DNA of 64,000 bases, taken from assembly GCF_054482525.1 (NCBI RefSeq), contig NZ_CM137006.1; one strand, given 5' to 3'. Below the pieces are notes generated by a model. That model saw only the letters and a list, made by a program, of their open reading frames with translations. It did not search any database and was not told where the DNA came from. A program made the position numbers and the translations under genes. Of this stretch, positions 4,783 to 38,198 are shown piece after piece; the stretch's first letter is position 1, and each line of letters opens with the position of its first letter.

Positions 4783-5090
4783 GACCCTGAACGACAACTA
4801 CGGGCTGGCGCTAATTGTTACAGTCGGTTCCGGAGGCCACTTCAGGGACTCTGCGCATTTTTTACGACATGGCTATTCCGTATGAACCATACGGAGATTT
4901 AACCATGGCACATTCTTTACCATTCCTTCCGGCAACCGATACAGCACATCCTCCGATGTCCATCCCTGCCTGCTGACAGTTTTTTACGCCGGAGGGCCAT
5001 TGTGTGACAACCACAGTGCTGTAACAGCAACCAGCCTGCTTTACCCAAACTCCAGTCCAGATTTTAACTGAACCGCCATTCACACCCTGA

Positions 5091-7290
<2,200 letters not shown>

Positions 7291-25094: not shown

Positions 25095-25467
25095 TGGCTC
25101 AGCGTATGCGCCATTTGCTTACATATGGGCTTAAACCCTAAGGGGCCCCAGGCTGCATACGCTTTGCCAAATCTGTTCGCTGCTCATGATAACGAAGAAC
25201 CAGGATACAAGGTGGAAGATCCTCAACGCTCAGGGGCGCAATGTTCCCTGTGTTTCATGCCCCCATCGTTTGTTGCTGTGGTGCCAGACTTCTGAGGCAC
25301 CTCCATGTCGTTTTGCTTTTGTCAGCATCATAAATGCGTCGGGACTGGTGAATGGATACAAGCCATTTTATTATCGACGTCAGCGAACATACTCACAATG
25401 TCGGTATATTTCTGAACTGAACAGTAAGTTTTGCGTTGATTACAGTATGCGAAGGAGGTCCATTACA

Positions 25468-27072
25468 ATGAATCCCGATTATGTGCAATCCTTGCAGACA
25501 TCCCACCACTTCCCAGCTGATTTAACCTACAGATTATTTCCTAGTGAGCTTGCGTATCTCATTGACGACTTATATGAAAGTACCCAACTTCCGTTGGAGC
25601 TCATTTTTAATACTGTACTGGCAACGCTCTCACTCTCCTGTCAGTCATTGGTTGACGTTGTTCATCCTCACACCAACATGCCGGAACCCTGCTCACTTTA
25701 TCTGTTGGCAATCGCAGAGCCAGGCGCGGGAAAAACAACGATAAACAGACTGGTGATGAACCCCTGTTACGAATTTGCCGATCGACTCATTCAACAATAC
25801 GAAGAGAGAAACAAAGATTATAAGACTGAACTACAGATCTGGAATACCCGGCAGAAAGCGCTTGCTGCCAATTTAAGAAAGGTTGTTAACCGGGGGTATC
25901 CGGGGGAACAGGAAGAAGAGGCGCTGCGTAATCACGAAAGAAATAAACCGACACGTCCGGTTCGACCGAATTTTATCTATGAAGATGTTTCGCTTAAAGC
26001 GCTTGTGGAAGGGCTCAATGAACATCCTGAGGCAGGGGTTATTTCTGATGAGGCGGTCACTTTTTTCAGAAGCTATCTGAAAAATTATCCGGGCCTGTTG
26101 AATAAAGCATGGAGTGGGCAACCGTTTGATTTTGGACGGGCTGACGAGAAATACCATATCGCGCCACGTCTGACATTTTCGTTAATGTCTCAGCCGGATG
26201 TCTTTACGAATTATATAAATAAAAATGACGTACTGGCGTGGGGAAGCGGATTTCTTTCCCGGTTTCTGTTCAGTCAGGTTGTAAGTTCTTCCTGGATACG
26301 TGATTATACGAGAGGTGAGTTCAGAACAATATCAACCCTGGAGAACTTTCATAAAAAGATTAACGGATTCCTGTTAAACCACAACATTAATTTCCCCGGC
26401 ATGAGCACCGAAAGGAAGACATTAAAACTTGCGAAGAAAGCGTTGGGGGAGTGGCAGGAAAACCAGATTAAGATTGAAAGAAAAGCGCTTGCAGGCGGGG
26501 AGTGGGAACACATCAGAGATATTGTTCTGAAAGCAGGTTCTAATATACTGAGGATAGCTGGAATATTCACCTGCTATTGCTATAAAGATGCTGAGGAAAT
26601 TGAATCAATTGCGCTTTTTAAAGCTATGCATCTCATGGACTGGTATCTGGAGGAGGCGAGCACAATATTTTATCCCATGTCTGCACGATGCCAGTTTGAA
26701 CAGGATGCCTGTGAACTGTATGCATGGATTATGACCCGAATAAGGCAGAATAATTGGCGTGCTATCAGGAAAACAGACATTGAAAGATATGGTCCCAATC
26801 GACTGAGAAGAGCAGAAAAACTTACACCTGTACTCAATCAGTTAATCTGTCAGGGGTATTTATGTATCATCAGAATGCGATCGCATCAGGCACTTTATGT
26901 TTCTGTTTATTGTAACAATGGTTACCTCCTTCCTTTAGGCGCAATGTATTACGAACAGTTTGATATTGTTCTACCCGAGAATATTCATAAAGCGAAAGCA
27001 TATCACGTTAATATTCCACCGGAATTAATTCCGTCATTTGCGTCACCTTTTTCAGAGTATAGCTTATTTTGA
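25468..27072 (+). CDS. DUF3987-type P-loop protein (YfjI-like, P4 alpha C-terminal-like)
   Basis: Start moved from 25186 to ATG at 25468, preceded by AGGAGG at 25453-25458; Walker A AEPGAGKTT; family from memory. Confidence 0.5.
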   Translation: MNPDYVQSLQTSHHFPADLTYRLFPSELAYLIDDLYESTQLPLELIFNTVLATLSLSCQSLVDVVHPHTNMPEPCSLYLLAIAEPGAGKTTINRLVMNPCYEFADRLIQQYEERNKDYKTELQIWNTRQKALAANLRKVVNRGYPGEQEEEALRNHERNKPTRPVRPNFIYEDVSLKALVEGLNEHPEAGVISDEAVTFFRSYLKNYPGLLNKAWSGQPFDFGRADEKYHIAPRLTFSLMSQPDVFTNYINKNDVLAWGSGFLSRFLFSQVVSSSWIRDYTRGEFRTISTLENFHKKINGFLLNHNINFPGMSTERKTLKLAKKALGEWQENQIKIERKALAGGEWEHIRDIVLKAGSNILRIAGIFTCYCYKDAEEIESIALFKAMHLMDWYLEEASTIFYPMSARCQFEQDACELYAWIMTRIRQNNWRAIRKTDIERYGPNRLRRAEKLTPVLNQLICQGYLCIIRMRSHQALYVSVYCNNGYLLPLGAMYYEQFDIVLPENIHKAKAYHVNIPPELIPSFASPFSEYSLF

Positions 27073-28668
27073 AATAACCTTACACAGATAAAACAAAATC
27101 AACCAACCTTCATTCGGAGGTTGGTGATAAGGCGTTTTGCATATCCTGCACCTATGCAAATGTTCACCAATTATGGGGGGGGAATGAGAATTTCTCTGAA
27201 AAAACCGCTACGGTAGCAACAGTAGCAGCACATGCACCACATCTGTGATTTAATTTTGTTTTCATAATGACCTGCTGTCAGAGCTGGTTGAATACAGGAG
27301 TGTGCGCACTGGTGGAAGCATGGCTTTCGTTTTTTATTGATCGAAAGTGAATCGAAAGATTATTTTTAACATAGATTAAAGCTAATCATTAACCATATTG
27401 TGTGAGTTTTCATATATAACTTCGTTTGATTTTCGTCGTGATGAGTGTAGGTGTATATGATAATGTCGGTCTCTGCCTGAATAACGAATGGTTATCACTG
27501 TTACTGAAAAGAGATGCTGTTCAAGTTTGCATTTCAATAGGAGAGTGAAGAAAAATGATTTGATATTTTTTCTGTAAGATAATGGTTTGTCATGTTCGTA
27601 TTCAGAACGGATGATTTCTTATTTTTACTCATCAAACATGGATAATTTTAATTTAGGTTTATTACTATAATTAGTATCTACCCCTTTATTTATCATCCAT
27701 CTCTGCCCTTCATTTTCCCTCTCTGTCTTTACACATTCCATTACTCTTATTCTCATCCAGTTATATTCACTCCCTTCCTTGTCTAATCTTCATTGTCACC
27801 ATTATCATGGTATCCACCTTCTCCATTCCTCAATCATAACTACTGTAACTCATATGATACTCAGATAAGTTATTCTCTACTACGCTATTGCTGATATCCA
27901 TCTGTTCCTGTTTTCAGTAAAATAATAATTTATTTTAATTTTATCCATCATGAGCTGTATTTGCTTAACAATGATTGTTTATCTGATATGTTTTAACCAT
28001 TCTGGTAAATATCAATACTTCTGTCATCACTGATTAACTGAATGCTTACTCTTTAATAAGGTATCCATTATTCTGTAACGATTAGCCGAGCAGGGTAAAT
28101 AACAGAATTAATAGAGTGAATTTCTGATTGTGTTTGTTCGTTCCTGATTATCTTGTATTTTAAATAAAATGAAAATTATCCATCCATGGTATGTTTCATT
28201 CTGGTACCGTGTACCCGTTAACGTTCATATCTTGAACATGAGTTGTTTTTAACAGATAAAATGAGTGCGTGTAAGTTTATTGGGTTACAGGTATCGTGTT
28301 GGCCTTGTACACGGTTTTTTAGAACCATTGAGAGCAAGTTTGTAATTTATGATGGTGATTAGTCGTAATATGTTTCTTGAACTTCTGATCGTGGGTTTTT
28401 ATCGCATATTTTGCAGTATTTCGTGATGTTTATTGATTCTGTATTTTATTCACTCCTCGTTTATCTCATCTCTTTAGCTAATACCATCAGATAATCCATT
28501 TATTTCTGCACAACGCTACGTGTCGTTAATAACCGACGTATCCATTCTGTTACAGCATGCCTGATAAATACCGTCTGTAAGTTATTACCGTTTTAGATCT
28601 GATTATGAGCGAAAGCATTAATTCGTTTACAGCACTTAAAACGTCATTAACTTTCAGGAGTCATCAGC

Positions 28669-29235
28669 ATGCCTAAATCTTACACACCAAACTGGTTTTT
28701 TACCGCTTTACTTGACAATCACATCAATCAGTTGGTCGCACGCTATTCCCGTCTGCGGGCCTTACGCATGGATTTCTTCTACAGGAAAGATACGCCTGAT
28801 TTCTTACAACCTGATCATCGCTGGCTTGAATTGCAGTTGCGTATGCTGCTGGAGCAGGTGGAACAATTTGAAAATATCGTTGGTTTCTTCTGGGTGATTG
28901 AATGGACGGCTGATCATGGTTTTCATGCGCATGCGGTTTTCTGGCTCGATCGTCAGAGGGTTAAAAAAATATATCCCTTTGCGGAGCGGATTACGGAATG
29001 CTGGCAGTCTATTACGCATAACAGCGGTTCGGCACACCGCTGTACATATCAGCCGCATTATACATACAACATCAACATTCCTGTGCGCCACAACGATCCT
29101 GAAAGCATCGATAATATTCGCGGTGCCCTGCATTATCTGGCGAAAGAAGAGCAAAAAGACGGGCTGTGTGCCTACGGCTGCAGTGAAGTTCCTGAGCGTC
29201 CTGCTGCAGGGCGTCCTCGTAAGCCTCACTTCTGA
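28669..29235 (+). CDS. inovirus Gp2-family protein (YagK/YfjJ-like)
   Basis: 188 aa; LRMDFFYRKD, GFHAHAVFWL, ALHYLAKEEQ motifs. Confidence 0.65.
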   Translation: MPKSYTPNWFFTALLDNHINQLVARYSRLRALRMDFFYRKDTPDFLQPDHRWLELQLRMLLEQVEQFENIVGFFWVIEWTADHGFHAHAVFWLDRQRVKKIYPFAERITECWQSITHNSGSAHRCTYQPHYTYNINIPVRHNDPESIDNIRGALHYLAKEEQKDGLCAYGCSEVPERPAAGRPRKPHF

Positions 29236-29518
29236 AGCTTAAGGCCTGAGCCTCCGCTCCTGGAAACACTCCGTCGGTAAAAATCTACCGCCCTGATTAA
29301 TGATGTGAACTGAAGTCAACGGAGATCATTCACCTTAAACCCACCTCAGGAATTTTACACCTGTCTGGTCTCCTGACTGTCCTGGCATACGACATCTGCC
29401 ATCCCCGGTTCCACGGTTATCACATCAACAATCTCAGTACACGACGCCTTCAGTTTCACCATACGCTCGTCTTTCGCTGGCGGGGATGCGTCGTGCGTTT
29501 CCATATGGAGCATATCTT

Positions 29519-30159: not shown

Positions 30160-30396
30160 ATGTTGACCTCAATGACAGGCCACGACAGCGTGTTGCTGCG
30201 TGCTGACGATCCCCTGATCGACATGAACTACATCACCAGTTTCACCGGTATGACCGACAAATGGTTTTACAAGCTGATCAGTGAAGGCCATTTCCCGAAA
30301 CCCATCAAGCTGGGCCGCAGCAGCCGCTGGTACAAAAGTGAAGTGGAGCAGTGGATGCAGCAGCGAATTGAGGAATCACGAGGAGCAGCAGCATGA
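30160..30396 (+). CDS. alpA: AlpA-family transcriptional regulator (second copy)
   Basis: 78 aa; GMTDKWFYKLISEGHFPKPIKLGRSSRWYKSEVEQWM. Confidence 0.8.
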   Translation: MLTSMTGHDSVLLRADDPLIDMNYITSFTGMTDKWFYKLISEGHFPKPIKLGRSSRWYKSEVEQWMQQRIEESRGAAA

Positions 30397-37619: not shown

Positions 37620-38198
37620 ATATCAAGCGACTTCTCCTATCCCCTGGGAACACATCAATCTCACCGGAGAATATCGCTGGCCAAAGCCTTAGCGTAGGAT
37701 TCCGCCCCTTCCCGCAAACGACCCCTGGAAGCCCCGTAGCGACGCGGAGAGGGGCGAGACAAGCCAAGGGCGCAGGCTCGATGCGCAGCACGACATAGCC
37801 GGTTCTCGCAAGGACGAGAATTTCCCTGCGGTGCCCCTCAAGTGTCAATGAAAGTTTCCAACGCGAGCCATTCGCGAGAGCCTTGAGTCCACGCTAGATC
37901 TATCTCATCTGCGCAAGGCAGAACGTGAAGACGGCCGCCCTGGACCTCGCCCGCGAGCGCCAGGCGCACGAGGCCGGCGCGCGGACCCGCGCCACGGCCC
38001 ACGAGCGGACGCCGCAGCAGGAGCGCCAGAAGGCCGCCAGAGAGGCCGAGCGCGGCCGTGAGGCTTGGACGCTAGGGCAGGGCATGAAAAAGCCCGTAGC
38101 GGGCTGCTACGGGCGTCTGACGCGGTGGAAAGGGGGAGGGGATGTTGTCTACATGGCTCTGCTGTAGTGAGTGGGTTGCGCTCCGGCAGCGGTCCTGA

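Follow-up and report, generated by a model that had tools for sequence, protein, structure and literature searches.

Genomic setting and distribution of the spacer

What an ORF-free spacer with an almost G-less stretch on its plus strand does in a CP4-like genomic island of E. coli is the question raised by this locus. The spacer was analysed within its surroundings of 64 kb (the whole stretch of DNA under study, termed the window in the following). The flanking genes (Table 1), which a sequence-only reading of the locus had named DUF3987-like and Gp2-like, are both backed by Pfam in these identities. The Gp2-like gene product is assigned to YagK_YfjJ_C and REP_ORF2-G2P, the scores for the Rep domains being weak (28 and 25 bits). 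An AlpA-family gene is found by Pfam at 30160–30396; its product belongs to PF05930, is of the excisionase type and matches 8c3t, TorI and RdfS in the PDB. Besides the Gp2-like gene, YfjI and AlpA, the island encodes an integrase, ParDE, CbtA/CbeA, RadC, an antirestriction protein, a DUF932 protein and a GTPase. A gene of the ProQ/FinO family, frameshifted here, is located about 2.5 kb downstream. CP4-like islands are carriers of virulence and resistance cargo: here, an ISCR2 resistance region carries sul2, strAB, tet(A) and floR. The pap fimbrial operon is found as cargo adjoining some of the related copies.

The absence of any ORF of at least 60 aa between 27100 and 28660, as originally noted, was borne out, the longest ORFs of the spacer encoding 51 aa (27382–27537, minus strand), 43 aa and 40 aa. 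The spacer is best read as non-coding regulatory DNA of the island. Its GC content is 28–37% across 27300–28600, and this AT-rich composition fits the earlier suggestion of a silenced region; foreign DNA of this kind may be silenced by H-NS.

Conservation in related islands, which the sequence-only reading had named as a check, was found. Of 5426 complete E. coli genomes, 1572 (about 29%) contain some part of the spacer; it is identical in more than 140 of these, among them those of the strains W2-5 and Sanji, and found at full length with approx 80% identity in others. The spacer DNA is essentially specific for E. coli, a conserved 20-mer matching only two species-representative genomes. Twelve matches to the spacer were found on plasmids, while among viral contigs one locus had a protein match and one a match to the motif described below. 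No match to the spacer was obtained in the phage collection, and SpLE1 of the O157 strain Sakai has no similarity to the region.

Table 1. Features of the spacer and its flanking genes (positions in the window)
Feature	Position	Strand	Remarks
YfjI-family (DUF3987) gene	25468..27072	+	PGAP start 25468; Pfam DUF3987 1.5e-73; upstream of spacer
ORF-free spacer, 1596 nt	27073..28668	.	Between YfjI-family gene and YagK/YfjJ gene; unannotated in RefSeq genomes
yfjI-linked spacer part	27073..27618	.	Found solely in copies with yfjI upstream
Hairpin	27102..27125	.	Compensatory changes, C-G to T-A in L087 and in L014
25-nt promoter-like motif TAATTTAGGTTTATTACTATAATTA	27649..27673	+	Best conserved block of the distal spacer; tract begins directly after it
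G-depleted, C-rich tract	27674..27870	+	Predicted 5' end of leader RNA; rut-like (candidate Rho loading) segment
9-nt unit CCACCTTCT, single copy	27814..27822	+	3–7 tandem copies in otherwise near-identical relatives
AT-rich mid-leader, normal G content	27871..28430	+	Fast-diverging; missing from short-leader orthologs
Proximal leader	28431..28668	+	Conservation equals that of coding gene; diversity 0.10
23-codon upstream ORF (MSESINSFTALKTSLTFRSHQHA)	28605..28676	+	Overlaps Gp2-like start codon; inside conserved hairpin
YagK/YfjJ (Gp2-like, Rep ORF2/G2P-like) gene, 188 aa	28669..29235	+	Pfam; downstream of leader

Composition of the G-depleted tract

The tract had been described as a G-depleted polypyrimidine tract. 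Of this description, the G depletion stands, positions 27670–27870 (201 nt) containing 46 A, 61 C, 12 G and 82 T, whereas the term polypyrimidine does not, since only 71% of the tract is pyrimidine and 23% is A. With C at 30% compared to approx 23% window-wide, the tract is better called G-less and C-enriched. The most G-poor 200-nt segment of the 64 kb starts at 27642 and contains 10 G, compared to a mean of 48.6 (sd 9.9), and 12 or fewer G per 200 nt are found at this place only within the window. C and G are unequally represented as well: the 78 nt from 27681 to 27758 contain 29 C and 2 G (raw C/G ratio 14.5). After a pseudocount of one for each base, the ratio amounts to 10, compared to 4.4 for the next best segment on either strand of the 64 kb.

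The tract is patched together from small segments rich in C, T and A and shows numerous indels. Across the copies of the spacer, tracts of 166 to 303 nt are found, and the number of G is steady at 14 to 21. A single copy of the 9-nt unit is present in the window; three, five, six and seven copies are found in L089, L004, L013 and L022, respectively, which are relatives from a single lineage. Neither Tandem Repeats Finder nor autocorrelation revealed an array or a periodicity in this window. The type of substitution differs between the tract and its surroundings as well. Exchanges per site from T to C amount to 0.57 in the tract and those from A to G to 0.26, compared to 0.24 and 0.32, respectively, in the rest of the leader; this excess of T to C inside the tract is the pattern expected from constraint against G, with the reservation that T/C exchanges may be overcounted owing to the many gaps in the alignment there.

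A conserved motif and orthologous leaders in other genera

The 25-nt motif directly upstream of the tract holds a perfect −10 hexamer, TATAAT, at 27666–27671, which reads TATTAT in half of the copies. There is no −35 element: the corresponding position reads TAATTT, by direct reading a match in one of six positions, and the zone of the spacer and −35 is filled by the block RGGTTWWTTA. A scan for consensus promoters did not call the motif. Upstream of Gp2-like genes in distant versions of the locus, the motif is found again in the same orientation, with up to three mismatches. The respective orthologs share 59% and 53% amino acid sequence identity with the window protein in other E. coli lineages, 56% in Klebsiella, 56% in Enterobacter, 54% in Serratia, 52% in Salmonella and 48% in Citrobacter braakii; a more distant motif-bearing version (32%) is encoded on the E. 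coli plasmid L107. The distance from motif to start codon is 120–213 nt for the orthologs with 48–59% identity, 605 nt for L107 and 995 nt in the window; K. pneumoniae 176 is a strain with a short leader. The lineages with gene maps have a neighbouring alpA-family gene, except for Citrobacter amalonaticus and Xenorhabdus, in which other DNA replaces the sequence upstream of the motif.

The alignment of window positions 27648–27703 with the motif and leader start of Citrobacter reached a score of 54, compared to a maximum of 26 for shuffled sequences. Alignable with the leaders of the orthologs are the motif and the first 30–45 nt; further downstream nothing aligns, and the leaders are still C-rich and G-poor. 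For C minus G, the 150-nt segment behind the motif belongs to the highest 0.02–5% of values of its own locus in nine of ten lineages. When the first 45 nt were excluded, C:G ratios of 1.7 to 5.3 were obtained in all eight lineages tested, and a combined p of about 1e-7, calculated for independent lineages, was obtained for this remaining skew; its significance is overstated because the lineages are not fully independent. In L107, the motif is present and the C>G skew is absent. The strand asymmetry pointed out in the sequence-only reading is hence real, and it recurs at orthologous loci of other genera. Given the motif and the skewed leaders of the orthologs, the tract appears as an extreme, expanded E. 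coli version of an ancestral G-poor leader starting at a conserved promoter-like site.

The motif most likely marks a promoter or an operator. The combination of a consensus −10 without a −35 and the RGGTTWWTTA block suggests a promoter that would depend on, or be controlled by, a DNA-binding factor.

A candidate Rho-loading leader

If the motif is used as a promoter, transcription of the plus strand would start near 27678, and the tract would then make up the initial ~200 nt of a ~990-nt leader RNA. Rho binds RNA that is nearly devoid of G, rich in C (here about 30%), hardly structured and lacking Shine-Dalgarno-like motifs. Since the tract has these properties, it is proposed to form the beginning of an untranslated leader RNA and may serve as a Rho loading (rut) site. 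This proposal is tentative and held with somewhat less than even confidence. Rho silences prophages, and here it would load on the leader and end most transcripts within it, by which the Rep-like/AlpA module would be kept off (silenced or insulated). Relief might be brought about by translation, by an RNA-binding factor or by a regulator bound at the motif. For this scheme, we infer that the motif would serve as promoter, that the plus strand would be transcribed and that Rho would act at the tract.

The rut criterion applied by RhoTermPredict is a 78-nt window with C/G > 1 and C spaced every 11–13 nt, while a second criterion asks for a pause site, either a G+C-rich hairpin or the sequence G-11 G-10 Y-1 G+1, at most 150 nt downstream (PMC6407284). 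The first is matched by the 78 nt mentioned above (27681–27758), which contain a chain of seven C spaced 11–13 nt apart. Downstream of it, in 27759–27908, neither a GGN8YG sequence nor a terminator-like or G+C-rich hairpin is present. Besides the missing Shine-Dalgarno-like motif, the tract has only four potential start codons and no conserved ORF, and it is predicted in silico to be ribosome-free. The density of YC dinucleotides is ordinary (24.9 per 100 nt compared to a window mean of 22.6). The candidate rut site thus agrees with the predictor in composition and fails it at the pause site, the strand being taken from the motif and from synteny.

If the tract functions as proposed, it would be a testable control point for the activation of islands in ~29% of the complete E. 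coli genomes, and the same control point would extend to relatives of these islands in Klebsiella, Salmonella, Enterobacter, Serratia and Citrobacter. A more far-reaching version, in which the motif and the G-poor leader would form a previously unrecognised, genus-spanning cassette gating the Rep-like/AlpA module of CP4-type islands, with Rho as silencer and a motif-bound island or phage factor as activator, is speculative and rather unlikely. Should it be true, an excision or replication module would be gated, including that of islands with pap fimbriae and resistance genes, and the hypervariable leader of E. coli would represent an 'immunity-like' specificity region.

Two-part architecture, divergence and a possible neutral origin of the tract

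The evolution of the spacer was followed in 50 unique copies gathered from genomes and metagenomes, by which two parts can be distinguished. In the part linked to yfjI, diversity among five lineages is 0.04–0.23 for 27125–27575 and 0.34 for 27075–27124. The hairpin of this part (Table 1) is followed by a T-run on the minus strand and therefore resembles a terminator, either for a minus-strand transcript or for yfjI or for both. The second part (~27619–28668) invariably precedes a module of the Gp2-like gene (188 aa), a hypothetical gene (~190 aa) and alpA, and is also present in copies adjoining pap operons. To the left of it, unrelated sequence or an IS element is found in many copies. The loss of homology just left of the motif in many E. 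coli copies fits the motif as the functional 5' edge of the module.

For the Gp2-like gene, diversity values of 0.086, 0.086 and 0.127 were obtained at codon positions 1, 2 and 3. Within the second part of the spacer, diversity is 0.10 for 28425–28668, 0.21 for 27831–28424 and, as the highest value, 0.28 for the tract, which also has the most gaps. Compared to the L003 lineage, a difference of about 5% is found at each codon position of yfjI and one of 11–29% in the spacer; most of the spacer thus evolves faster than the neighbouring genes. Copies cut short by an IS element, at 27901, 28285 or 28415, persist, so that copies without the tract exist, and truncated copies such as that of CFT073 keep the proximal leader. 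The 2 to 6-fold faster divergence of most of the spacer compared to the flanking genes and the tract-less, IS-truncated copies indicate that it is mostly without strong constraint, which speaks against the proposed Rho site.

These data are what would be expected if the tract were neutral, slippage-prone and AT-rich spacer DNA without a function, probably coated by H-NS as is other foreign DNA, in which the poverty in G was inherited by accident and amplified by duplication of G-poor repeats; the short-repeat mosaic with its indels, the variable copy number of the 9-nt unit, the low GC content and the lack of any conserved structure found point in the same direction. Three observations speak against it, namely the C>G skew directly after the motif in eight to nine lineages of six genera with unalignable leaders, the steady number of G over the range of tract lengths, and the preference for T/C exchange over A to G inside the tract only. 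A neutral origin is considered doubtful; in that case, the tract would be a compositional curiosity only.

Other possible roles of the tract at the RNA and DNA level

The tract might also be used in an unstructured form without being a Rho site, as a platform for translation or for an RNA-binding protein (S1, Hfq or a protein of the ProQ/FinO type). In the short-leader orthologs, the G-poor stretch extends to the ribosome-binding site; the RNA of the tract is unstructured, and the nearby ProQ/FinO-family gene is compatible with such a role. In the window, however, 800 nt separate the tract from the start codon, and C is enriched in it rather than G just depleted, which argues for Rho more than for S1. 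Ribosomal protein S1 prefers A/U-rich RNA. This role is regarded as quite unlikely.

An origin at the DNA level for the Rep-like protein, with the motif as nick or binding site and (T)ATCCAT or TATCCATTCTGTTAC-like repeats as iterons or DnaA-box-like sites, is about equally improbable. The spacer is indeed placed between the gene for the helicase-associated DUF3987 protein and the Rep ORF2/G2P-like gene. ATCCAT occurs eight times in it, where 0.73 copies are expected, and TATCCAT five times (0.23 expected), all on the plus strand; the direct repeats D1, D6 and D7 are in line with an origin, too. The repeats are, however, irregularly spaced and only partly conserved, no canonical DnaA box (TTATCCACA) is present in the spacer, and TTATCCAT(C) deviates from that box at the critical CAC. 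Furthermore, a DNA hairpin around the motif, as in a rolling-circle origin, is not conserved among the six lineages inspected, other parts are more AT-rich than the tract, and the orthologous loci keep the skew in leaders of only 120–213 nt.

A free-standing non-coding RNA, either a G-less RNA of the plus strand or a purine-rich, GGA-dense protein sponge of the minus strand, is still less probable. It could be invoked by the promoter-like motif directly upstream and by the minus strand of the tract, which contains many GGA motifs and, in relatives, (GGAGAAGGT)n. The comparison with covariance models suggested earlier was carried out with Rfam 15 over 26500–29300 on both strands and gave no match at E≤1, and a search for tRNA and tmRNA found none. 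The RNA of the plus-strand tract folds with a minimum free energy of −22 kcal/mol for 261 nt (z = −0.7), the minus strand with z = −0.2; single-sequence z-scores between −0.2 and −1.1 are no better than those of shuffles. Consensus folding of 26 diverged copies yielded an energy of about 0 on both strands, and a scan with alifold gave no structure signal over 27619–28560. Besides, a terminator after the tract is absent on either strand, the length of the tract is hypervariable and the orthologous segment runs straight into the gene. A non-coding RNA, as first suggested for the tract, is therefore retained only in the form of a long untranslated leader and not supported as a structured or known RNA. 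The sRNA PapR, considered with regard to the copies adjoining pap, was rejected, being encoded outside the pap island (PMC4546395).

A decayed low-complexity protein gene, e.g. one with a minus-strand Gly/Glu-rich tail (GEG)n-YHDNGDNED, to which the 9-nt length of the repeat unit (a multiple of three) and a minus-strand frame reading GEGGYHDNGDNED before a stop might point, is very improbable, since each of the six frames contains 32–43 stop codons over 532 codons, Pfam is empty in all frames of the spacer at E≤0.1 (with a sole chance match at E=0.16), no tract ORF is preserved across the spacer copies, the lineage with the expanded 9-nt repeat has no ORF >68 aa, and the orthologous segments are short leaders that were never coding. 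The products of the small ORFs had no exact counterpart in the protein collection. Taken together, the negative results for ORFs, Pfam, Rfam and folding make both the decayed gene and the structured RNA unlikely.

Comparison with known regulatory systems

The proposed Rho-loading leader resembles Rho-dependent attenuators of long 5' leaders, the silencing of foreign DNA by Rho and rut sites (as defined in PMC6407284): the tract is rich in C, poor in G and without structure, spans at least 78 nt with regularly spaced C, would be untranslated and would belong to a long, predicted leader that precedes horizontally acquired genes. Rho-dependent termination in 5' UTRs of E. coli is the subject of one study (PMC7815308). 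Among 4494 validated RhoTermPredict predictions in E. coli K-12, only 37 have a C/G ratio of at least 3 (PMC6407284). In contrast to typical rut sites, the tract has a far higher ratio, no predicted pause site and a length that is hypervariable between strains.

A second resemblance concerns the layout of the promoter region. The Q protein of phage lambda (at PR') and AlpA of Pseudomonas aeruginosa (at PalpB) load at promoters that carry a binding element in the zone from −35 to −10 and are followed by a terminator (PMC7969949, PMC9371919). Similarly, a conserved block occupies this zone in the island motif, next to a strong −10; the leader behind it is proposed to be prone to termination, and alpA, a small regulator gene by name, is adjacent. 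Unlike in these systems, no intrinsic terminator is present after the island motif, and the island AlpA is the excisionase-type PF05930 protein. Compared by sequence only, it gave no match to the AlpA chains of P. aeruginosa, so that the similarity to the Q/AlpA systems is regarded as an analogy of layout only.

In inoviruses, an intergenic region with the origin and the packaging signal lies upstream of gene II. The island spacer is comparable in being ORF-free and directly upstream of a gene of the G2P family. It differs by the lack of conserved hairpins at the motif and tract, by the absence of inovirus structural genes and by a downstream protein of 188 aa with weak Rep scores. In E. coli K-12, CP4-57 (yfjI-yfjJ) and CP4-6 (yagK) share these gene families and their order (alpA, yfjI, yfjJ) with the island. 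The respective spacers are approx 150 and 270 nt long and have neither the motif nor the C>G skew nor any nucleotide similarity to the island spacer. The tract, most plausibly a Rho-type attenuator, is a modest regulatory lead and not a new kind of element.

The proximal leader and the upstream ORF

A second patch of C>G is located in the proximal leader, at 28442–28520 (21 C and 5 G in 78 nt). The only alifold signal of the spacer originates from the end of this segment, where a hairpin at the ribosome-binding site (28568–28687) reached z-scores of −2.5 to −4.7; it is near-invariant in the alignment, and the covariation count is also confounded by three unrelated sequences. The 23-codon upstream ORF contained in this hairpin is intact in 45 of 49 copies, with a ratio of synonymous to non-synonymous changes of 96:75.

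The leader and the start of the Gp2-like gene

Directly upstream of the Gp2-like gene, and reaching into its first codons, a short ORF of 23 codons is situated in a hairpin, the pairing of which involves the region immediately 5' of the Shine-Dalgarno sequence. Its reading frame is unbroken in 45 of the 49 copies, and the synonymous to non-synonymous count is 96:75. The combination of upstream ORF and hairpin looks like a case of translational coupling.

In the leader, the hexamer ATCCAT occurs eight times on the plus strand within 27695-28545 (0.73 expected), often as part of longer direct repeats of the type (G/T)TATCCAT(C/T) or TATCCATTCTGTTAC. The hexamer is similar to a DnaA box, but is devoid of the CAC. 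Furthermore, the promoter-like motif may be present again, in degenerate form, at two sites, and the long leader may have grown through internal duplication.

Features of the spacer between yfjI and the Gp2-like gene (window positions)
Feature	Position	Strand	Remarks
Hairpin with compensatory base changes	27102-27125	-	read on the minus strand, a T-run comes next
33-codon ORF, MKTKLNHRCGACAATVATVAVFSEKFSFPPHNW	27164-27265	-	hairpin 27102-27125 just downstream
Extended ATCCAT direct repeats	27994, 28062, 28190, 28431, 28539	+	
Possible degenerate second motif copy, AGGGTAAATAACAGAATTAATAG	28092-28114		
Possible degenerate second motif copy, ATGTTTATTGATTCTGTATTTTATTCACTCC	28425-28456		followed by a patch with more C than G (21 C, 5 G)
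Long conserved hairpin at the 23-codon ORF	arms 28575-28595 / 28637-28657	+	
23-codon upstream ORF, MSESINSFTALKTSLTFRSHQHA	28605-28676	+	3' end 8 nt within the Gp2-like gene

Motif and tract on plasmids

On the E. coli plasmid pC5-A (L010, 2665-6030), the spacer between yfjI and the Gp2-like gene is 3.4 kb long and includes an apparent transposase fragment; the motif and a G-poor tract are retained, with a GC skew of -0.5 at 5000-5300. An isolated 320-nt fragment bearing motif and tract is located downstream of ireA on an IncF plasmid of STEC (L009, 6001-6321), where it is ended by an IS66 element. This fragment is present on at least eight conjugative plasmids.

yfjI and its downstream flank

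The 33-codon minus-strand ORF downstream of yfjI is intact in seven of nine diverged copies, and its synonymous to non-synonymous count (11:51) is neutral-like. A homopolymer within this ORF (27175-27182) differs among the copies, being G8 in the window, GGGGGGTG in the related locus L042 and GGGGCATG or TGGGTGTG in others. The block 27125-27575 is more conserved than the first 50 nt 3' of the yfjI stop codon.

Between the window (25468-27072) and the related locus L003 (2379-3983), yfjI differs by 4.5, 5.0 and 5.0% at the three codon positions, and the adjoining spacer by 11-29%. Since all three positions differ equally between the two lineages, relaxed selection on yfjI is suggested. The mechanically called ORF starts at 25186 (628 aa), whereas the start in RefSeq genomes is at 25468 (534 aa); the two starts differ by the span 25186-25467. 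An IS110 pseudogene is located immediately upstream.

Outside the spacer, the resistance region has a G+C-rich stretch with just 11 T per 200 nt (37904-38142), including a T-free run of 111 nt at 37948; the stretch is flanked by aph(6)-Id and tetR(A).
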